Positions 661 to 55,829 of a stretch of 64,000 nucleotides of DNA are shown piece by piece. Both the position numbers and the translations under genes were made by a program. The DNA comes from Anaerolineae bacterium. Lineage in GTDB: Bacteria; Chloroflexota; Anaerolineae; UBA1429. Within the stretch, counting starts at the first letter, position 1. Each line of letters begins with the position of its first letter. Under the pieces are notes generated by a model. That model ran no database searches, was not told the origin of the DNA, and worked only from the letters and a program-made list of their open reading frames with translations. The stretch covers positions 290,641 through 354,640 of the forward strand of contig JAXGNH010000003.1 of the NCBI GenBank assembly GCA_040768165.1, read 5' to 3'.

Positions 661-3600
661 GTGTCGCGGCTCGAGCATGACGCCATGATCGGACGGACTG
701 TAGCGAACCTCGAAATCCTCGAGCTGGTGGGCCTGGGGGGCGCCGGCGAGGTCTACCGCGCCTACGACCCGAGTCGTAAGCGCGAAGTAGCCCTCAAGAT
801 CCTCTCCGAGCGCGCCGAGCCCGACATGGTGCTGCGCTTCGCTCGCGAGGCCCAGGCGCTGGCGATGCTGCGCCACCCCCACATTGTCGAGGTGTACGGC
901 TCGGGGGTCGACCAGAGCCTGCGCTACATCGTCATGGAGCTGATGTCCGGCGTCTCGCTGCGGGAGCGGCTGCAGCAGACCGCGTTGCCCTGGCGTGAGG
1001 CGGTGAGCATCGCGCGGCAGGTGGCGTCGGCCCTGGCGCTCGCCCATGCTCGTGGTGTGGTACACCGCGACGTCAAGCCCGGCAACGTCATGTTCGATGC
1101 CGAGGGCAACGCCAAGCTCGCCGATTTCGGGCTGGCGCACCTCAGCGAGGCCTCGGCGATGACGCGCACCGGCACCGTCATGGGCACTGTGCTGTACCTC
1201 GCCCCCGAGCAGGCCGTGGGTAGGCCGGTGGACGCGCGCAGCGACCTCTATGCGCTGGGCGCCGTGCTTCACGAGATGGTTGCGGGCCAGCCGCCGTTCC
1301 CCGGCCCGACGGCCGTCAGCATCATCTACAAACACCTCAACGAGCAGCCGCCACGCCTGCGTGAGGTGGTCGCCTCGCTCCCACCGGCGCTGGACGCCAT
1401 CGTCGAGCGCCTGCTGCAAAAGGACCCTGCGCGGCGGTTCCAGAGCGCCGACGAACTCGTGGCGGCCCTCGATCGCCTGCTGAGCGGCGAGACCGACGCG
1501 AACCTGCCGGCCGGCGCGGCGCCTGATGCCCTTTTGAGCGGCCCCGGCATCGACCCCGGCTCCCTCCCATTGGCGGGGCGCGACGCGGAACTCGGCGCCC
1601 TCACCGACGCCCTCGATCAGGCGGTTACCGGGCTCGGACGCACCGTCCTTCTGGCGGGTGAGGCGGGCATGGGCAAGACGCGCCTCGTGCGTGAACTGGC
1701 CCACGCGGCCGCCGGCCGCAACGCCCTGGTGCTGGCCGGCGAGTGCCTCTATGGCGACGCACCCAACCCCTACGCCCCCTTTGTCGAGATGGTGCGCGCT
1801 TACGACGAGCGGCGCCCGGTCTGGTCCGAGGGGGATGCGGAGGTCGAGGCGGCCTTCCAGGACGTCCGCGAGATCTGCGACGCCAGTGCCGCCCGCGTCG
1901 GCGCGGGGGGGCAGCCGAGCGAGCGCGCCCGGTGGCTGCGGAACGCGTCGCCCCAGGACGCCCAGGGGCAGGCGTTCGAACTCATCAGCCGCTTCTTCTA
2001 CCAGGTCTCTCGGCGGCGCCCGCTGGTGCTGGTGCTGGACGACCTCCAGTGGGCCAGCCCCACCACGCTGCAGCTCTTTCACTACCTGGCGCGCGGCGTG
2101 CGCGGGACGCGCATCCTTCTGGTGGGCACCTATCGCCCGGAAGACATCCTCCCGGGCGCCTCCGGCGGGCGTCACCCGCTGCGCGAGGTGCTTCAGCGCA
2201 TGGGGCGCGAGCACCTACATGCCGAGATCGCTCTCGATGCCGTGAGCGCCGAGGCGGTGGGCGAGCTGGCCGCCGCCATGATGAACGTCCCGGCGCTGGA
2301 CGACGAGTTCTGCGCTCTGCTGCACCACGAATCGGCCGGCAACCCCTTCTACCTCCTGGAGACGCTGCAGCTGCTGCAGGCCGAGGGGATTCTCGAGCGC
2401 GTGGAGGACCACTGGGAGCTGGCGGCGGCGCTGGAAGATGTCGAGATACCGGGCAGCATCCTGGACGTCGTCATGCGGCGCGTGGAGCAGGCGGAGGACG
2501 ACGATCGCGAGACGCTCGACTGGGCTGCCATCGTCGGCTATGACACGGTGACACGGCGCGGCTACGGTGGCGGCGTCGATCTGCCACACCGACACATCGA
2601 CGCGCCACTGCTGGCGGCTGTGCTGGGGCGCTCGCGACTGGAGGTGATGCGGCGCCTGTTCGCCCTGGAACAGCGCCATGGCCTAGTCATCTCGGATGAG
2701 GCGGGGTTCAGCTTTGCCAACGCCAAGATCCGCGAGGTGCTCTACGATCAGATGCCCGAGGGGCTTCGGCGCGAGAGTCACCTCATGGCGGGCGAGGCGC
2801 TGGAAGAGCTGGTACGGGAGCAGGGCGTGGGGCACGAGGAGGGGCGCATCTATGACTTGGCGCACCACTTTGTGCGGGCGCGCCACGCGGAAAAGGGCTA
2901 TCGGTATGCCCTGCGCGCGGCGGAGCGCGCCGAGGCCCACTTTGCGCCGGCGGAGGCGCTCGCCTTCCTCGATGACGCGCTGTCCCTCGTGGAGCGGCTC
3001 CCTGAGACGCGCGAGCTGGCCATCGAGCGCTTGGCGCTCGACCATCGCCGGGGCCACCTCCTCTCCACCGTCGGGCGCCTGGACGAGTCGGTGGCGGCGC
3101 TCGAGTCCGCCCTGGCGGCCAGCCGCACCCTCGGAGAGCGACACAATGAGGCCGAGATCCTCCTCGACCTCGGCTCGGTGCACGGGCGCTCGGGCTCCTG
3201 GGAGCGCGCCGTCGCGCTCGCGGGCGAGAGCCTGCAGCTGGCGGAGGAGTTGGGTGACGGCGAGCGGCGCGCCAGCGCACTGCTGAGCATGGCCTTTTTC
3301 GACTTTGAGCGCGGCGACTGGGAGGCGGCGGTGCGGCGACTCCAGGCGGCGCTGGACGTGGCGCAGACCGACGGGCTGGAGCTGCTGCAGGCGCGCATCC
3401 TGGGCAACATGGCCATCATGTACAACGCCCGCGGAGACCGCGCCAGAGCGGTGGAGCTGTACCAGGGCAGCATCGACACCTTTGAGCGCCTGGGCCAACC
3501 GCTCGACGTGGGGCGCGGCCTGAGCAACATGGGGTTCTCTTACTTTGGACTGAACGCCTACGACGAGGCGGTGACGTGCTACCGCCGGGCGCTGGAGCTG

Positions 3601-4002
3601 TTCGAGAAGGTGGGCGACGTGCGCGAACAGGGGCTCGTCCACCTGCACCTGGCGGAGGTGGCCCTGGCGAATGAGGCGCTGGACGAGGCGCGCGACCACT
3701 GCACCCGCGCCATGCGGCGTTTCTCGCGCCTGGGATTCGAGTTGGGCATGGCCGACGTCGACCGCATCTATGCCGGCATCGCGCGGCGCGAGGGGCGCTG
3801 GGCCGTCGCCGAGCGCTATCTCCGCGAGGCGCTGGCGGTCTATGACGACTATGGCGACCAGCTGAACCTGGCCGAGACGCATGAGGAGCTGGCCGGGCTG
3901 CTCGAGGAGAGGGGCGACGCGCTCAAGGCCGCCGAGGAGCTGGAGCGCTCGCGCATCATCTTGCACGCCCTCACAGGGGCAGCGGGTTCGGCGGGGGCGT
4001 GA
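661..4002 (+). CDS. Ser/Thr protein kinase fused to AAA/STAND-type NTPase and TPR repeats (1113 aa)
   Basis: Hanks kinase motifs: GLGGAGEVY, VALK, HRDVKPGNVMF, DFGLA, APE. Walker A GEAGMGKTR at about aa 330. Long C-terminal TPR-like repeats. No C-terminal HTH seen. The start may be the ATG at 685 (MIGRTVANLEILELVG). Confidence 0.85.
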   Translation: MSRLEHDAMIGRTVANLEILELVGLGGAGEVYRAYDPSRKREVALKILSERAEPDMVLRFAREAQALAMLRHPHIVEVYGSGVDQSLRYIVMELMSGVSLRERLQQTALPWREAVSIARQVASALALAHARGVVHRDVKPGNVMFDAEGNAKLADFGLAHLSEASAMTRTGTVMGTVLYLAPEQAVGRPVDARSDLYALGAVLHEMVAGQPPFPGPTAVSIIYKHLNEQPPRLREVVASLPPALDAIVERLLQKDPARRFQSADELVAALDRLLSGETDANLPAGAAPDALLSGPGIDPGSLPLAGRDAELGALTDALDQAVTGLGRTVLLAGEAGMGKTRLVRELAHAAAGRNALVLAGECLYGDAPNPYAPFVEMVRAYDERRPVWSEGDAEVEAAFQDVREICDASAARVGAGGQPSERARWLRNASPQDAQGQAFELISRFFYQVSRRRPLVLVLDDLQWASPTTLQLFHYLARGVRGTRILLVGTYRPEDILPGASGGRHPLREVLQRMGREHLHAEIALDAVSAEAVGELAAAMMNVPALDDEFCALLHHESAGNPFYLLETLQLLQAEGILERVEDHWELAAALEDVEIPGSILDVVMRRVEQAEDDDRETLDWAAIVGYDTVTRRGYGGGVDLPHRHIDAPLLAAVLGRSRLEVMRRLFALEQRHGLVISDEAGFSFANAKIREVLYDQMPEGLRRESHLMAGEALEELVREQGVGHEEGRIYDLAHHFVRARHAEKGYRYALRAAERAEAHFAPAEALAFLDDALSLVERLPETRELAIERLALDHRRGHLLSTVGRLDESVAALESALAASRTLGERHNEAEILLDLGSVHGRSGSWERAVALAGESLQLAEELGDGERRASALLSMAFFDFERGDWEAAVRRLQAALDVAQTDGLELLQARILGNMAIMYNARGDRARAVELYQGSIDTFERLGQPLDVGRGLSNMGFSYFGLNAYDEAVTCYRRALELFEKVGDVREQGLVHLHLAEVALANEALDEARDHCTRAMRRFSRLGFELGMADVDRIYAGIARREGRWAVAERYLREALAVYDDYGDQLNLAETHEELAGLLEERGDALKAAEELERSRIILHALTGAAGSAGA

Positions 4003-4119
4003 GGGGCGTGCTTGTGTGAGTCCGATGGAACGCGGATTCCGCGGATCGTGCGTTGGGTAGAACGGGTGGGTCTCCGCGGATCATCTGGGCATGGGCCGTC
4101 CGTTGACGGTACCCGGCGC

Positions 4120-4260
4120 GCACCGGCGTGCGCGCCCTACACCGCCCCCTCGCCTTGCCCCGCGTTGGCGTGCGCGCCGCGCGCCGGGTGGATGGATGGA
4201 GGGGCGAACGCCTCGCCGGCCCGGCCCGTGTAGGGGCCGCACGCCGTGCGGCCCGCGGGC
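4120..4260. repeat. Diverged solo copy of the 96-99-bp hairpin repeat (see 6777-7063)
   Basis: Shares GGCGTGCGCGCCCTAC at 4126-4141 and GTAGGGG-stem-loop-CCCGCGGGCGCG with the array units. The stem arms are changed (ccgcacg/cgtgcgg versus tcgaacg/cgttcga) in a way that preserves pairing. Confidence 0.4.
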
Positions 4261-4268
4261 GCGTAGGG

Positions 4269-4772
4269 TCAGTCCGGCAGGCCCGGCGGGTAGGGGGCCA
4301 CGTCGGGGGTGGGGCCGAGGTCGGCCAGGTGCTCTCGGACGGTGCGGCCGGTGACGGGATGCACGCGATCGGGGGCAATGTCGGCCAGCGGCACGAGCAC
4401 CGTGGCGCGCTCCAGCATCCCCGGATGGGGGATGGAGAGTCGCTCGGTGTCGACGCGCACGTCGTCGTACATGAGGATATCGAGATCGATGGGCCGGGGG
4501 CCGTACGGCACGGTGCGCACCCGGCCCATGTCGCGCTCGATCGCCTGCAGGGCGTCGAGCAGGTCATGCGGCGGCAGGTCGGTCTCCACGGCGCAGGCGG
4601 CGTTGAGAAAGCGGGGCTGGTCGGTCACGCCCCACGGTTCCGTCTCGTAGAGGGGTGAGACGGCGACGAGCCGCATGCCGTGCGACGCCATGGCCTCCAG
4701 CGCCCCCTCGATCTGCGCGCGGCGATCCCCCAGGTTGGCCCCCAGGCCGATATAGGCGCGCGCCACGCTCAC
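4269..4772 (-). CDS. folK: 2-amino-4-hydroxy-6-hydroxymethyldihydropteridine pyrophosphokinase (HPPK)
   Basis: 167 aa with IGLGANLGDR, PLYETEPWG, IDLDIL motifs. The start overlaps the folP stop by 4 nt. Confidence 0.85.
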   Translation of the reverse strand: MSVARAYIGLGANLGDRRAQIEGALEAMASHGMRLVAVSPLYETEPWGVTDQPRFLNAACAVETDLPPHDLLDALQAIERDMGRVRTVPYGPRPIDLDILMYDDVRVDTERLSIPHPGMLERATVLVPLADIAPDRVHPVTGRTVREHLADLGPTPDVAPYPPGLPD

Positions 4773-6043
4773 CCCGCCCGCAGGATGGCGTCGGTCATGC
4801 GCGCCACCCGCGCCATGACACGCACGTCGTGTACCCGCACGATGTCGGCGCCGCGGGCGACGGCCATGGCCACCGCGGCCGCCGTGCCCTCCGTCCGCTC
4901 CTCCGGCGGGAGGTCGAGGGTGTAGCCGATGAACGACTTGCGCGACGGCCCGGCGAGGATGGGCAGCCCCAGCACGCGCAGCGCGTCCAGGTGGTTCAGC
5001 AGGCGGAGGTTCTGTTCCACCGTCTTGCCGAACCCGATCCCGGGGTCGACGATGATGCGCTCCCGTGCCACGCCCGCCTCCTCGGCGGCCTCGATCAGCG
5101 CGCCGAGTTCCCGGATCACGTCGCCGAGCAGGTCGGTGTACTTGACCCCCACGTAACGCCCACCGAGGCGCGCCTCCTGGGCCGCGTCGCGGGGCTTGCT
5201 GCGGTTGTGCATGAGCACCACCGGCACGCCGCGCCGGGCCGCCAGCGGCGCCAGCTCGGGATCCATGGCCATGCCCCAGACGTCGTTGATCATATCGGCG
5301 CCGGCATCCAGCGCCTGGCGCGCCACGGACGCCTTGTAGGTATCGATGGAGATGGGGGCGTCCGTCTCGCGCCGCAACGCCTCGATGACGGGCAGGACCC
5401 GGGAGGCCTCGGCCTGGGCGTCCACCGGCTGCCCGCCGGGGCGCGTCGATTCGCCCCCCACATCGAGGATATCCGCGCCCTCATCGAGCATACGGAGCGC
5501 CTGCTGTACGGCGGCATCCACCACCGCCTCACCACCGGCGCCCGCCTCTCCGGCGCCGCCTAGCAGGCCGTCCCCCGAGAACGAGTCGGGAGTGACGTTC
5601 ACGATCCCCATGATGTAGGCGCGCTCGCCCCACACGAACGCGCGCCGGCCGATGCGCAGGGCGACGCGCTCCGGGGCGAGGGCGTTGTCGAGCGCCCCCC
5701 GCGCCTCCTCGGCGAGGGCGCGCAACTCGGGCAGCGCCTCCTCACGGAGCGCGGCCAGCGTGCCGCGCACGGAGCGCTCGTTGCCCAGCAGGAGGAGGTC
5801 GGTGGTGGCCTCCATGCCCCGGTAGGCGCCCGCCGAGAGGGCGGCGTCGGCCTCCGAGGCGAGCATGTGCTCCTTGATGATGTGCGCCCCCGTGGCGCTC
5901 ACGCCGTCGAGGCGGAGGAGCAGGAGGCGTCCCTTGGGCAGCATCGCCGCGACCCCCTCGGGATCGGCGCCCACCGCCACCAGCGCCGAACGAAGCTCCT
6001 CGGGGGTGTCACACCGCAGCAGCCGCGGGTTGTGGCGGCTCAT
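4769..6043 (-). CDS. folP: Dihydropteroate synthase with an about 140-aa N-terminal extension
   Basis: Pterin-binding core IMGIVNVTPDSFSGDG, DILDVGGESTRPG, DTYKASVA, GADMINDV, ILAGPSRKSFIG. ATG at 6041-6043 (MSRHNPRLL). The upstream part of the 561-aa ORF is low-complexity read-through. Confidence 0.85.
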   Translation of the reverse strand: MSRHNPRLLRCDTPEELRSALVAVGADPEGVAAMLPKGRLLLLRLDGVSATGAHIIKEHMLASEADAALSAGAYRGMEATTDLLLLGNERSVRGTLAALREEALPELRALAEEARGALDNALAPERVALRIGRRAFVWGERAYIMGIVNVTPDSFSGDGLLGGAGEAGAGGEAVVDAAVQQALRMLDEGADILDVGGESTRPGGQPVDAQAEASRVLPVIEALRRETDAPISIDTYKASVARQALDAGADMINDVWGMAMDPELAPLAARRGVPVVLMHNRSKPRDAAQEARLGGRYVGVKYTDLLGDVIRELGALIEAAEEAGVARERIIVDPGIGFGKTVEQNLRLLNHLDALRVLGLPILAGPSRKSFIGYTLDLPPEERTEGTAAAVAMAVARGADIVRVHDVRVMARVARMTDAILRAG

Positions 6044-6678
6044 TGTTTGGGCTCCAGCAGGACGAGGCGCGTCTCCTCGGGCAGGCTGCTCGCGGTGACG
6101 GTGAGGGTCTCCATGCGTTCCGGGCTCTCCACGGCCATCTCCTTGAGGAAGCGGTTGGCCGTCTCGATCTGCGCCTTTAGCCCGGGCACCTTGTAGTGCA
6201 TGGGGATGACGATCTTGGGCTCCAGGAGCCCCACCACCTCTGCGGCGCGGGTGCCGGTGAGGGTGGATCGCCCCCCCACGGGCACGAACAGCACGTCGAT
6301 GTCGCCGAGTTGCTCGACCTGTTCCTGGCTCAGGACGTGCCCCAGGTCCCCCAGGTGGCAGAGGGTGAGGTCCTCGAACTCGATGAGATAGGCCGTGTTG
6401 CGGCCCAACTCGCGCCCTCCCTTGTCGTCGTGCCAGGTGGCGACGCCGATGCAAAAGATCCCCTCAACCTCGTACTCGCCGGGGCCGCGGATCACAAAGG
6501 GGGAGCCCCGGACCGCGTCGACGTTGTTGTGATCCTCGTGCTCGTGGCTGACGGTGACGACGGTCGACGTGAGGCGCGGCAGCTTGAGTCCCGTGGAGGG
6601 GCTGTACGGGTCGGTGACCACAGAAAGGCCGCGGCTCCGCAAACGAAAACAGCTCTGGCCGTACCACGTAATCTCCAT
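6040..6678 (-). CDS. Metal-dependent hydrolase, metallo-beta-lactamase fold (UPF0173-like)
   Basis: 212 aa with HEHEDHN, ICHLGDLGH, VPVGG. The stop overlaps the folP start (ATGA). Confidence 0.75.
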   Translation of the reverse strand: MEITWYGQSCFRLRSRGLSVVTDPYSPSTGLKLPRLTSTVVTVSHEHEDHNNVDAVRGSPFVIRGPGEYEVEGIFCIGVATWHDDKGGRELGRNTAYLIEFEDLTLCHLGDLGHVLSQEQVEQLGDIDVLFVPVGGRSTLTGTRAAEVVGLLEPKIVIPMHYKVPGLKAQIETANRFLKEMAVESPERMETLTVTASSLPEETRLVLLEPKQ

Positions 6679-6776
6679 CTATCTCTCCTAAGGGCCATCG
6701 CGCCGGCGCATCTGCGTACCCAACGCCAGGATGCGTGTGGAGGCCCGACGCCGTCCGACCCGCCGGCGCGCAACGG

Positions 6777-7063
6777 TGGGCGCACCCTACAGCGCGCGGA
6801 GCGGCCTGTCATGGTAGGGGTCGAACGCCGTTCGACCCGGGCGGCGCGCAGCGGCGTGCGCGCCCTACGATACGCCGAGCGGCCTGGTATGGTAGGGGTC
6901 GAACGCCGTTCGACCCGGGCGGCGCAGCGATCCAAACCCCGGATCGTCGGCGTGCGCGCCCTACGATACGCCGAGCGGCCTGTCATGGTAGGGGTCGAAC
7001 GCTGTTCGACCCGGGCGGCGCGCAGCGATCCAAACCCCGGATCGTCGGCGTGCGCGCCCTACA
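6777..7063. repeat. Tandem array of 96-99-bp repeats (about 3.2 units), each with a 10-bp palindrome GGGTCGAACG/CGTTCGACCC
   Basis: Units start at 6853 and 6949, a partial unit starts at 7048 (GGCGTGCGCGCCCTAC…), and a diverged unit lies at about 6777-6852. Units 2 and 3 are nearly identical. There are no unique spacers. Confidence 0.7.
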
Positions 7064-8099
7064 TGGCGCGTTGGATGGTGGCGCTGGCGCGCTGGGCGGC
7101 CAGCCAATCATCAAAGCCGCGCTGTTGCACCACGGGCCACAGCTCGTCGGGCACGGCCAACGTCGGGTCCACCTCGACGAGCTGGATGACGTGGTAGCCG
7201 AACTCGCTCTGCACGACGTCGCTCACCTCCCCCGGCTGAAGGGCGTAGGCCGCCTCCTCAAAGGCGGGCGGCATGACGCCCTTGGGAAGGAACCCCAAAT
7301 CCCCGCCGCTGTTGCGCGTGGTCTCGTCCTCCGACGTCTCTCGCGCCACGGTGATGAAATTCTCGCCGCCGCGGATGCGCGCCAGCGCCGCCTGCGCCGG
7401 CACCTCGTCCGAGACGAGGATATGGCGCACATGGTACTGCGCGACGTTGCGGGGAATCTGCGCGGTGACCAGATCGCGCACGGCGGCGGTCATCAGGTCG
7501 GCGCGCACCTGACCCCGCAACAGGTCCAGCGTCAGGCCGTTTGCGGTCAGCCAGGCATCAAAGCGGGCGGCGTCGCCCCCGCGCATCTGCGCGATCTGCG
7601 CCTCGATGTCCTCCGGCGTGACACGGATCCCGGCTTCGTGGGCGGCCTGTTCGATGAGCGCCTGATCGATCATCCAGTCCAGCACCTGCTCCTGGACCTG
7701 CCGCAGCGCTTCCTTCCCCGCCTCGGTGGTCAGGTCGGTGCCCGGCTGCTGCAGGAGGTACGCCTGGGCCTGGCCGACCTGTCGCTCCCATTCCTCGCGA
7801 GCGATGGGGGTGCCGTTCACCGTCGCTACCACCCCCGGCTCGAGTGCGGCGGACGCAGAGACCTCCTGGGGCGTTGCCTGCGAGACGGGCACCGGCGGCT
7901 CCGCGGGTGGGGTGTCGGTCCACAGTGGGACCGCCGTGGGCATCTCGGCGGGCGGAGCTACCGTGTCCTGGGGGGCGGCCGGCGCGGCGATAGTCGGCGC
8001 CTCGGCGACGCCGCCTGGCGGCTCCGGCGTGGTGATGGCGCAGCCGGCCAACAGCCAGGCACAGAACAACACGGTGACCACGGCGATCCGTCGTCTCAT
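7059..8099 (-). CDS. Parvulin-type peptidyl-prolyl isomerase lipoprotein (PrsA/SurA-like)
   Basis: MRRRIAVVTVLFCAWLLAGC signal with lipobox, then a SurA_N-like region. PPIC domain: HILV…GGDLGF…GYHVIQL. ATG at 8097-8099. Confidence 0.75.
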   Translation of the reverse strand: MRRRIAVVTVLFCAWLLAGCAITTPEPPGGVAEAPTIAAPAAPQDTVAPPAEMPTAVPLWTDTPPAEPPVPVSQATPQEVSASAALEPGVVATVNGTPIAREEWERQVGQAQAYLLQQPGTDLTTEAGKEALRQVQEQVLDWMIDQALIEQAAHEAGIRVTPEDIEAQIAQMRGGDAARFDAWLTANGLTLDLLRGQVRADLMTAAVRDLVTAQIPRNVAQYHVRHILVSDEVPAQAALARIRGGENFITVARETSEDETTRNSGGDLGFLPKGVMPPAFEEAAYALQPGEVSDVVQSEFGYHVIQLVEVDPTLAVPDELWPVVQQRGFDDWLAAQRASATIQRAM

Positions 8100-8408
8100 C
8101 AAAGAGCCTCCGCGGGCTGAATGTGTGCGGCGATCGACCATCGGTGTGACCGCCACGCCGGCCGGGGCACGGCCCAGGCCGTGGGGAGCGACGACCGAAG
8201 CGACGCGGCGCTCCGGCGCGGGCTCGGGGGACGAGGACACGGTTATCAAACAGGGTGTACTGCAATCCCCTGGACCGAAGTATAGAGGCGGGCGGGCGAA
8301 CTGTCAACGACGTCCGGTGTGTCGTTGACGGTGTCCGGCGGCGTGCCTATAATGCCAGTAACCTGGCGGTGCAAAGGTGTTCCGGTGGCATCCTACGGCA
8401 TAGCTCCC

Positions 8409-17361: not shown

Positions 17362-17442
17362 GGTTACAGGTGGCAGGTTGCAGGTTACAGACACTAGCGG
17401 GAACACCCGCTCAAGCCTGTAACCTGCCACCCTGTAACCTGG
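17362..17442 (+). repeat. Heptamer-hairpin repeat element, family A, copy 1
   Basis: GGTTACAGGTGGCAGGTTGCAGGTTACAG, then loop AGCGGGAACACCCGCTCAAGC, then CTGTAACCTGCCACCCTGTAACC. Confidence 0.7.
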
Positions 17443-17523
17443 AACGCATTTGGCGCGTTTGCCGCGGCGCGCGATGTGCGTTAGTATCGTTCTCTTGAGG
17501 CACGGCAGAGTTGAGGAGAGGGC

Positions 17524-28977: not shown

Positions 28978-29053
28978 GAGGTAACAGATGGCAGGTCACA
29001 GGCTCAAGCACCACCGAACGCTCGAGCCTGTGACCTGCCACCTGAAACCTGAC
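28978..29053 (+). repeat. Heptamer-hairpin repeat element, family A, copy 2
   Basis: GGTAACAGATGGCAGGTCACAGGCTC, then loop …CGCTCGAGC, then CTGTGACCTGCCACCTGAAACC. Confidence 0.65.
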
Positions 29054-29089
29054 ACGCGATGGGCCAGCAACGCACAACGCGCGAAGCGC

Positions 29090-39756: not shown

Positions 39757-39826
39757 CGGGCTATTGGCCATTGACTCTTGGCTGTTGGCTGCTAGCCCCG
39801 GCCAAGAGCTAACAGCCAACAGCCCG
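39757..39826. repeat. Heptamer-based inverted-repeat element, family B (GGCTGTT units), upstream of sulfatase
   Basis: CGGGCTATTGGCCATTGACTCTTGGCTGTTGGCTGCTAGC…GCTAACAGCCAACAGCCCG. Confidence 0.6.
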
Positions 39827-39858: not shown

Positions 39859-41325
39859 GTGCCCAACGACCGCCGCCCCAACATCCTCATCGTCATGACC
39901 GACCAGGAGCAGGGGGGAGTGCTCGATCCGGGGCATCCCTGCCGCACGCCCAACGCCGACCGGCTGGCGGCGGAGGGGCTGCGCTTCGACCGCACCTACA
40001 CTACCACGGCCCACTGCTGCCCCTCGCGCGCCACGTTCATGACGGGGCTGTACCCCAGCCACCACGGCATCCATAACAACGTGCTGAACGATGCCGCGCA
40101 GCATGTGTCGCTCAAGCCGGGCGTGACTACCTTTAGCGAGGTGCTGCGCGATGCCGGCTATGCGCTGGGGTTCTCGGGCAAGTGGCACGTCTCGGCTACG
40201 GAGCAGCCCAAGGATCGGGGCTGGGAGCAGTACCATGCCACAGCGATCCAGGGAGAGTGGCACGGGATGCGCTGGGAGCGTTTCCGCGAACTCGCCCGTG
40301 AGTCCGAGTGCGACGCGCCGCGGGGGCGGGGCGAGCTGCTGCGCCCCGGCTGGGGCCGCTACCGCCTGTATGGCACGTCGGAGCCCAACCCCGAGGCGGA
40401 CCCCTTTGTGCCGGGCGACCTCCACACGGTGCAGACGGGGATTCGCGCGCTGGGCGACCTGGCGCGCCAGGACAAGCCCTGGTGTCTCTTCGTGGGGACG
40501 GTGGGGCCGCACGACCCCTATATCATCCCCGAGCACTATGCCACCATGTACGACCCGGCCGACGTAGATCTGCCGCCGAGCTACCACGACACGCTGCTGG
40601 ACAAGCCGCGCATCTACCAGCGGCAGCGGCGCTTTTGGTCGCAGCTGACTGAGGACGAGTATCGCGAGGCGATCGCCCACTATTGGGGCTACTGTACCAT
40701 GCAGGACGATCTGCTGGGGAAGGTGCTCGAGGCGCTGGAGGCTAGCGGCCAGGCCGATGACACGCTGGTGATCTTTTGCTCGGACCACGGCGACTATGCC
40801 GGGGCGCACGGGCTGTTCATGAAGGGTGTGGCGGCATTCGACGAGTGCTACCGCGTCCCGTTCGTGGCGCGCTGGCCGCGCGGCATCGCCCGGCCGGGGC
40901 GGGTGGTGGAAGAGTTCGTCAGCCTGGCGGATTTCGCGCCCACCTTTGCCGATCTGGCGGGCGTCGAGATGCCGGCCACCAGCGGGGGGAGCCTGGTACC
41001 GTTCCTGCGCGACGAGCGCCCCGCCGACTGGCCCGACGCCATGTACAGCCAGTTCAACGGCGTTGAGTTGTACTACAGCCAGCGCTTTGTCCAGACGAAG
41101 GAATGGAAGTACGTCTACAACGGCTTTGACTTTGACGAGCTGTACCACCTGAGCGAGGATCCCCACTGCCTGCGCAACCTGGCGGAGGATCCTCGCTTTC
41201 GGCCCGTCGTCGAGGCGATGTGCCGTCGCATGTGGCGCCGTGGCTACGCGGAGCGCGACATCGACTGCAACCCCTACCCCACGGTGAGTATGGCGCCGTT
41301 CGGGCCGGCGGTGGGGTTGGAATAG
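39859..41325 (+). CDS. Sulfatase (formylglycine-dependent arylsulfatase family)
   Basis: CCPSRATFMTG (C-x-P-x-R FGly motif). N-terminal ILIVMTDQ. 488 aa with a GTG start. Confidence 0.85.
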   Translation: MPNDRRPNILIVMTDQEQGGVLDPGHPCRTPNADRLAAEGLRFDRTYTTTAHCCPSRATFMTGLYPSHHGIHNNVLNDAAQHVSLKPGVTTFSEVLRDAGYALGFSGKWHVSATEQPKDRGWEQYHATAIQGEWHGMRWERFRELARESECDAPRGRGELLRPGWGRYRLYGTSEPNPEADPFVPGDLHTVQTGIRALGDLARQDKPWCLFVGTVGPHDPYIIPEHYATMYDPADVDLPPSYHDTLLDKPRIYQRQRRFWSQLTEDEYREAIAHYWGYCTMQDDLLGKVLEALEASGQADDTLVIFCSDHGDYAGAHGLFMKGVAAFDECYRVPFVARWPRGIARPGRVVEEFVSLADFAPTFADLAGVEMPATSGGSLVPFLRDERPADWPDAMYSQFNGVELYYSQRFVQTKEWKYVYNGFDFDELYHLSEDPHCLRNLAEDPRFRPVVEAMCRRMWRRGYAERDIDCNPYPTVSMAPFGPAVGLE

Positions 41326-41507
41326 CTGTCGGCGGTCGGCGGTCAGCTGTCAGCTGACGGGCTGTTGGCTGTGAGCATTTGGCTCGACCTGCCTTCCTCG
41401 AGGAGTCCAACGGCCAAGAGCCAAGCGCCAACCGCTAATAGCCAACACCCCGCCAACTGACGACTGATCACTGACAACTGACAGCCGACAGCCGACAGCT
41501 GACCGCC
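41324..41507. repeat. Composite family-B inverted repeat (GTCGGCG/GTCAGCT heptamers outside, GGCTGTT/GCCAAGAG units inside), downstream of sulfatase
   Basis: AGCTGTCGGCGGTCGGCGGTCAGCTGTCAGCTGAC … GGCTGTTGGCTG … GCCAAGAGCCAAGCGCCAACCGCTAATAGCCAACAC … CTGACAACTGACAGCCGACAGCCGACAGCTGACCGCC. Confidence 0.6.
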
Positions 41508-48657: not shown

Positions 48658-48742
48658 GGTATCAGGTTGCAGGTTCCAGGTTACAGGCCCCGGTGACGCC
48701 ACACGCTCAAGCCTGTAACCCGCAACCTGCAACCTGCAACTC
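48658..48742 (+). repeat. Heptamer-hairpin repeat element, family A, copy 3
   Basis: CAGGTTGCAGGTTCCAGGTTACAGGCC, then loop …CACGCTCAAGC, then CTGTAACCCGCAACCTGCAACCTGCAAC. Confidence 0.65.
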
Positions 48743-51456: not shown

Positions 51457-51544
51457 TGGTTACAGGTGACAGGTGGCAGGTTACAGGCTCAAGTGTGCTC
51501 ACTCGCTCAAGCCTGTAACCTGCCACCTGGAACCTGCTACAGCC
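51457..51544 (+). repeat. Heptamer-hairpin repeat element, family A, copy 4
   Basis: CTGGTTACAGGTGACAGGTGGCAGGTTACAGGCTC, then loop …CTCGCTCAAGC, then CTGTAACCTGCCACCTGGAACCTGCTACAG. Confidence 0.65.
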
Positions 51545-51585
51545 CCTCGATTCGGCTCGTAACCCGTAACTCGGAACCCGCCCAG

Positions 51586-55739: not shown

Positions 55740-55829
55740 GGTTACAGGCTGCAGGTGCGAGGTTACAGGCACCTGCGAGGGCGTCGCTCGAGCCTGTAAC
55801 CTGCAACCTGCAACCTGCAACTTGTCACC
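55740..55829 (+). repeat. Heptamer-hairpin repeat element, family A, copy 6
   Basis: CGGTTACAGGCTGCAGGTGCGAGGTTACAGGC, then loop …CGCTCGAGC, then CTGTAACCTGCAACCTGCAACCTGCAAC. Confidence 0.65.

Follow-up and report, generated by a model that had tools for sequence, protein, structure and literature searches.

The tandem hairpin array at positions 6737-7062 of the window (the whole 64-kb stretch of DNA analyzed here) is very probably a BIME-like cluster of GTAG-type REPs, part of a dispersed family with a cognate REP-associated tyrosine transposase (RAYT). The features shared with GTAG REPs and BIMEs are a GTAG at the hairpin foot, a short stem-loop, dispersal, a location after genes and alternating sub-types. 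Those shared with REP-RAYT systems (REPtrons) are a RAYT gene that has these REPs on either side and a product with the HUH and Tyr motifs of a Y1 HUH enzyme. The hairpin itself is what is conserved, and its arms co-vary. By analogy with characterized enzymes of this class, the conserved structure is best read as a single-stranded DNA hairpin plus GTAG that the RAYT would recognize.

The array is ordinary and leaves existing knowledge of REPs as it is. It adds a tidy example from outside the Proteobacteria, in which two module types form a heterodimer, several stem alleles are compensated, and the single-copy RAYT is syntenic. Annotation of such arrays should use the label REP/BIME repeats, in place of candidate riboswitch, sRNA, or CRISPR-like array.

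Two hairpin modules at two sites in the window

The window contains two sites of the family, with 10 modules in 64 kb. The array consists of four tandem doublets, each with two GTAG-headed hairpin modules, Y and Z, in opposite orientation. Both modules follow a common 25-nt design, a 5′ GTAG and then directly a GC-rich stem-loop of 8-10 bp. Module Y lies on the plus strand and reads GTAG + GGGTCGAACG-C-CGTTCGACCC, with intact copies at 6814, 6892, and 6988; Y modules have a 10-bp stem and a loop of 1-3 nt. Module Z lies on the minus strand, reads GTAG + GGCGCGCA-CGCCGC-TGCGCGCC, and has its heads at 6868, 6964, and 7062; Z modules have an 8-9-bp stem and a 3-6-nt loop and amount to the Y design with two further flipped base pairs. 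The GTAG tetranucleotide stands at the hairpin foot in all intact modules, both in the window and in related contigs. Within the array doublets Y and Z are placed tail-to-tail with 3-4 nt between them, so that each doublet is bounded by GTAGGG...CCCTAC; the heterodimer between these edges measures about 50-75 nt.

The leftmost doublet contains a decayed Y (GTGGAGGCCCGACGCCGTCCGACCC; 6737-6761, plus strand), found by repeat search, where other strains have the intact GTAGGGGCCGGACGCCGTCCGGCCC, and a variant Z (GTAGGGTGCGCCCACCGTTGCGCGCC on the minus strand; 6765-6790), found by reading both strands. It is followed by a Y with a perfect 10-bp palindrome (6814-6838, plus strand; repeat search and both-strand reading) and, after 4 nt, the tail-to-tail Z (6843-6868, minus strand; sequence reading and DNA fold). 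The third doublet combines another perfectly palindromic Y (6892-6916, plus strand; repeat search) with a long Z (6920-6964, minus strand; sequence reading and DNA fold) whose loop carries the nested hairpin GATCCGGGGTTTGGATC. The last has a Y with one G-T pair, in which GCTG replaces GCCG (6988-7012, plus strand; repeat search), and a second long Z (7017-7062, minus strand). The TAG of that GTAG head (7059-7061, minus strand) is the stop codon of the neighboring PPIase gene, according to the ORF and sequence reading.

A 19-20-nt nested hairpin (GATCCAAACCCCGGATC) thus sits in the loop of two Z modules, and it accounts for the two unit lengths of 77/78 and 96/98 nt. The repeat search gave start-to-start spacings of 77, 78, 96, and 98 nt. 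Tandem Repeats Finder (TRF) called a period of 96 with 2.2 copies (95% match, score 387; 6852-7062) and a second one of 78 with 2.3 copies (score 258; 6748-6925). A 23-nt head-to-head spacer (6791-6813, repeated at 6869-6891 and 6965-6987; sequence reading) is near-identical between the units and occurs in this array alone, and this suggests that the array grew by duplicating locally in tandem.

The original prediction had placed a tandem hairpin array at 6777-7063. TRF and the repeat search both recover the array, which ends at 7062 but begins at 6737. Its estimate of about 3.2 units of 96-99 bp was right that the units are tandem but not about their lengths, and there are four doublets when the decayed one is included. 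A perfect palindrome was said to occur in every unit; GGGTCGAACG/CGTTCGACCC is perfect in two Y copies, but in the third (6988) the G-T pair lies next to the loop, and each unit holds two different hairpins.

Predicted DNA folds of the modules reach -12 to -14 kcal/mol (z = -3.2 to -3.8), and single-strand DNA folds of the doublets give z = -3.3 to -4.8. A doublet is predicted to fold as two side-by-side hairpins, with GTAG/CTAC left unpaired. The leftmost doublet (6737-6790) has decayed without compensation and folds no better than shuffles (z = +1.2). We rejected a strict REPIN: the stems of Y and Z are not alike, their arms lack complementarity to each other, and each module of a doublet is predicted to form its own hairpin.

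The second site has a Z (GTAGGGCGCGCACGCCGGTGCGCGCCGGG; 4112-4140, minus strand; sequence reading and DNA fold) and a Y sub-family variant (4230-4254, plus strand; pattern search and fold) of the form GTAG + GGGCCGCACG-C-CGTGCGGCCC, the 25-mer GTAGGGGCCGCACGCCGTGCGGCCC. The two are head-to-head with 89 nt between them, a layout that differs from that of the array. A distant copy with a compensated stem had been described at about 4120-4260, and this is borne out: relative to the array Y, the variant at 4230-4254 is altered at two stem positions on both arms and is perfectly paired.

This second site lies between convergent genes, a Ser/Thr kinase gene (661-4002, plus strand) and folK (4269-4772, minus strand). 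The array is flanked by two genes of the same strand. Upstream in the direction of transcription is a gene for a SurA-like/PpiC-type PPIase (7059-8249, minus strand; PF13624, PF00639), and downstream is a metallo-beta-lactamase (MBL)-fold gene (6040-6678, minus strand), the first of an MBL-folP-folK group that continues with folP (4769-6454, minus strand).

Dispersal and covariation of the hairpins

A wider search for the hairpin, as the original prediction had suggested, used the pattern GTAGGGGNCGNACGCCGTNCGNCCC, in which two variable stem pairs were left free. On metagenome contigs it matched 87 stretches, mostly from bioreactor assemblies with about 4x coverage. Several of the matched contigs overlap the window at 97-99% identity, so they sample the same species-level population, which is probably Chloroflexota. 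A relaxed census (at most 5 mismatches to the Y consensus and at most 2 to the Z consensus) of the window and all fetched loci, 828 kb in total, gave 513 raw matches, compared with 3 in shuffled copies of the same sequences. Contigs of this population contain at least 58 distinct Y/Z sites with about 200 modules, 1-14 per site, a count made on contigs and not on a complete genome, after arrays were clustered by their flanks and redundant flanks removed.

Among neighboring module pairs, 108 of 143 are Y and Z in opposite orientation. A compact 50-56-nt tail-to-tail Y-Z dimer, for example GTAGGGGCCGCACGCCGTGCGGCCC-GC-GGCGCGCACAGCGTGCGCGCCCTAC, recurs at many unrelated sites, and single modules and head-to-head dimers are common too. 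The head-to-head spacers are site-specific and constant within each array, as is the module spacing; this would be expected of a doublet that is first seeded and later amplified locally with its flank.

Rough gene calls place 9 arrays between convergent genes, 10 between genes of the same direction, and 2 between divergent genes; these counts come from a crude GC3-based caller, which did not call folK and gave no genes for many flanks. At five other sites (L077, L031, L033, L072, and L091) the adjoining ORF has the TAG of a GTAG head as its stop codon. Modules are apparently inside long high-GC3 ORFs at four sites (L092:3050-3578, L021:5268-5432, L057:687-711, and L068:3010-3034), two of which, L092 and L057, appear to look intragenic through over-extension of the ORF at its 5′ end or into the contig end.

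The number of units appears to differ between strains, in short-read assemblies that are prone to mis-assemble tandem repeats. At the array site we counted 4 doublets in the window, 5 in L043, and 7 in L077, and at the second site one Y copy in the window, two in L003, and three in L001 and L002. Four metagenome contigs encode the MBL protein, and all of them start or end inside the array. Other contigs also start or end inside Y/Z arrays (L001-L004, L015, L018, L026, L037, and L076 among them). The repeats appear to break short-read assemblies, so REP arrays offer an explanation for the assembly breaks of this organism. Such breakage is probably also the reason that only one pattern match was seen in the related MAG of the genome collection.

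That MAG came from a scan of the genome collection with GTAGGGGNCGNACGCCGTNCGNCCC, which gave nine single matches in MAGs of seven phyla or classes, eight of them perfectly palindromic. The Chloroflexota match (L011) has the same Z-spacer-Y layout and shares 99.6-99.7% identity with metagenome contigs of the population. A separate observation concerns L005, L006, L009, and L013: the exact 25-mer GTAGGGGCCGCACGCCGTGCGGCCC occurs once each in MAG contigs labeled Verrucomicrobia, Acidobacteriota, and Fimbriiglobus, and other perfectly paired variants were seen in MAGs of Bacillota and Actinomycetes. These occurrences may reflect shared ancestry, the transfer of a RAYT system, or convergence.

The stems change in a paired manner. 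The large majority of the 154 pattern hits are Watson-Crick at both free positions, and ten different fully paired stems occur. The dominant stem, GGGCCGGACG/CGTCCGGCCC, makes up 61 of the 154, and the GGGTCGAACG stem of the window only 10. Many random, uncompensated stem changes had been named in advance as evidence against selection on a structure; instead, a perfect 10-bp stem is present in 51 of 82 site-unique Y copies (each sequence counted once per site), and these stems include several different sequences. At pair 11:19 these 82 copies have G:C in 36, C:G in 21, A:T in 16, and a non-Watson-Crick combination in 9.

Co-varying arms had been read as selection on structure, and this reading gains quantitative support. 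Pairing holds in 95% of cells over 32 distinct Y sequences, double-sided changes occur at three pairs and cover 21 cells, and none of 500 shuffles reached the observed covariation. When the 3′ partners were slid by 1-3 columns as a control, pairing was 29-53%. Mismatches to the consensus of 0, 1, 2, 3, and 4 were found in 61, 12, 60, 36, and 59 copies; the peaks at even numbers are a signature of paired changes. Uncompensated and chimeric copies occur too. Together with the decaying leftmost doublet of the array, they indicate that individual copies are not all under local constraint.

These results bear on the alternative that a locus-specific structured RNA between the PPIase gene and MBL-folP-folK (a terminator, attenuator, processing site, or sRNA) conserves the hairpins, which we consider very unlikely. 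The array would be transcribed, as it is inside a series of same-strand genes, its transcript-sense RNA is predicted to fold more strongly than shuffles (z = -3.9), and the PPIase stop codon is within a REP head. REPs of E. coli near stop codons have reported effects on translation and mRNA decay. However, the same modules are present at no fewer than 58 unrelated sites, the unit number appears to differ between close strains, one doublet has decayed, and a cognate transposase accounts for the conservation without a local function. A scan of both strands of 6737-7062 found no terminator-like (T-run) and no promoter-like site, and a search of Rfam with a permissive threshold over 3800-7400 found no family that matches the repeats, with a sub-threshold CRISPR-DR match outside the repeats only. 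The idea of a local terminator, attenuator, or sRNA with one diverged copy therefore fails.

An intrinsic terminator was rejected, as neither strand of the array has a site that combines a GC hairpin with a T-run. A CRISPR array, which the original prediction had already dismissed, was rejected as well: the spacers within the array are near-identical copies, and the array has no Rfam CRISPR match.

A RAYT gene framed by Z and Y modules

We found a RAYT gene at L064:12495-13088 (minus strand), on a contig that we infer to belong to the genome of the window because both come from the same metagenome, the coverage is similar (4.7x compared with 4.0-4.9x), and the REP modules are identical. Its product is the sole match of E. 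coli RayT (NC_000913) among all ORFs of the fetched loci (phmmer, 5.7e-5), and it exceeds the cut-off of the NCBIfam equivalog NF047646, REP-associated tyrosine transposase (85.8 bits, cut-off 80). The Pfam search, which included the Y1_Tnp model, gave no match to this protein. Its only PDB match is TnpA-REP (4ER8). In this alignment LMPDHLHFVV of the predicted protein pairs with VLPEHMHCIW (the HUH motif, with DHLH at H59-H61), and HYVLNNP with DYIYINP (catalytic Tyr115 and Asn119); the residue names are those given for TnpA-REP (PMC3479197). Database relatives bear the JGI name 'REP element-mobilizing transposase RayT'. A single-sequence search with E. coli RayT found no RAYT in the 64-kb window or in the first loci.

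The gene lies between an outward-pointing Y head (12430) and Z head (13105), and further Y and Z copies occur on both sides. A 70%-identical orthologue (P0002, on the NCBI contig L102) has the same Z-RAYT-Y frame. In both lineages a gene for a RecQ-like helicase with TPR repeats (1080 aa) is upstream of the RAYT gene (L064:8950-13088, L102:1-3537). The conserved frame and the RecQ-like neighbor suggest that a single-copy RAYT has been inherited vertically along with its REPs. One copy of the gene was found in 828 kb of REP-bearing contigs.

This gene also weighs on a second alternative, in which the doublets are miniature inverted-repeat elements (MITEs) moved not by a RAYT but by a DDE-type transposase that reads terminal inverted repeats. 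The doublets are 50-75 nt long and have 6-nt inverted termini, as such elements could. Those termini are, however, just GTAGGG, and the conserved parts are two internal hairpins that are REP-like. The only transposase-like gene beside the modules is the Y1 HUH RAYT, in the same Z...Y frame in two lineages, and no target-site duplications were noticed in the sequences that were read, a remark that does not come from a systematic search. Single modules and head-to-head dimers, which are common, also argue against a MITE, and we regard this explanation as highly improbable.

With the RAYT as the cognate enzyme, the heterodimeric BIME-type doublets might be gene-less miniatures of the two ends of the transposase element, because the RAYT gene is inside the same Z...Y frame that, without a gene, forms the 50-56-nt unit. 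Stem position 7 has three co-existing compensated alleles (G:C, C:G, and A:T), position 4 has alleles too, and these could mark sites that the enzyme reads by shape and not by sequence. We offer this miniature reading tentatively, as a rather doubtful one.

Proposed mechanism and comparison with known REP systems

By analogy with E. coli TnpA-REP and IS200/IS605, we propose that the single-copy RAYT, a predicted Y1 HUH enzyme, binds single-stranded DNA at a GTAG together with its Y or Z hairpin. It would cut and rejoin the strand, and so seed gene-less Y-Z doublets in extragenic DNA, mostly just after genes. Recognition would be limited to copies that still fold and keep the GTAG; for this reason stem changes would spread mainly as compensated pairs and give rise to co-existing sub-families. 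Slippage or unequal recombination may then multiply or remove a seeded doublet with its local spacer in tandem, which would produce the 77/78- and 96/98-nt units and the apparent differences in unit number between strains.

Any effect on the transcript of the PPIase gene or of MBL-folP-folK would be a by-product and not the reason that the sequence exists. Possible by-products are a barrier to decay from the 3′ end and, as the PPIase stop codon is in a REP head, disturbed translation termination. As a side reading, REP heads that overlap TAG stops may have been recruited to adjust how translation terminates or how mRNA decays.

Plain local tandem duplication with drift, in which the hairpins are neither recognized nor selected, is barely credible: the array-specific spacers show that tandem duplication occurs and the leftmost doublet has decayed, but it leaves unexplained the dispersed sites, about ten perfectly paired stems, and covariation above every shuffle.

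According to Di Nocera et al. (2013, PMC3733652), GTAG-tagged REPs are known in Proteobacteria, Cyanobacteria, Chloroflexi, and the PVC group, and a Chloroflexi example is family GTAG-23 of Thermomicrobium roseum, which is clustered in blocks. The same authors describe sub-families in which complementary stem residues alternate, heterodimers, REPs reiterated in tandem along with the DNA that flanks them, and RAYT genes flanked by GTAG repeats. They also place the REPs after genes, with GTAG termini that supply TAG stop codons. As far as those descriptions go, Y/Z has in common with this super-family, GTAG-23 included, the GTAG tag on a short stem-loop, the complementary-stem sub-families, blocks reiterated with their flanks, the TAG stops, and a RAYT flanked by the repeats. 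In T. roseum the elements are said to cluster at a small number of loci, whereas Y/Z is dispersed over at least 58 sites; this comparison was made by description and not by consensus sequence.

BIMEs are defined, in the part of Nunvar et al. (2010, PMC2817692) that concerns them, as regularly spaced REPs of alternating orientation. The closest counterparts in E. coli are the BIMEs (y/z mosaics, BIME-2) with RayT/TnpA-REP (YafM; 4ER8), which share with Y/Z the GTAG at the hairpin foot. To the extent covered by passages of PMC2817692 and by PMC3479197, they also share two alternating REP sub-types, in tandem in extragenic DNA after genes, and a single Y1 HUH transposase gene flanked by REPs. E. 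coli TnpA-REP binds and cleaves single-stranded DNA only where the GTAG and the hairpin are both present (PMC3479197). There are differences: the Y/Z stems are perfect, GC-rich, and 8-10 bp long and lack the bulge required by E. coli TnpA-REP, the RAYT found here is about 33% identical to that enzyme, and only over the C-terminal 49 residues, and the host of Y/Z is probably a Chloroflexota bacterium.

REP doublets of Pseudomonas commonly have compensatory changes and form ordered clusters (Bertels and Rainey 2011, PMC3116915). Inverted REP doublets are the recurring unit in those REPINs, as in Y/Z, which likewise has compensatory changes and ordered tandem clusters. The RAYT gene here resembles those of Pseudomonas in its conserved chromosomal position, consistent with vertical inheritance. 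Unlike a REPIN, in which two REPs pair into one long hairpin, Y and Z differ and are predicted to fold separately. The Z-RAYT-Y frame is also like IS200/IS605 elements, in which a Y1 HUH gene is bracketed by two hairpins with 5′ tetranucleotides (PMC3479197). In contrast to those elements, it is the gene-less hairpin pair that multiplies here, with one RAYT gene copy in 828 kb.

The window also contains a second repeat family, unrelated to Y/Z and built from heptamers, at 17362-17445, 29020-29055, 39759-39824, 41324-41503, 48663-48740, 51458-51580, and 55785-55821. Where checked, these repeats are mostly between long ORFs. They are inverted repeats, hairpin-like, with arms built from runs of tandem heptamers, such as (GGTTACA/GGTGGCA)x4 ... 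GCTCAAG ... (CCTGTAA/CCTGCAA)x4, and other flavors, CAACAGC and CAACTGA/AGCTGTC, occur at 39.8 and 41.4 kb. We take them to resemble the STRR heptamer repeats of cyanobacteria.
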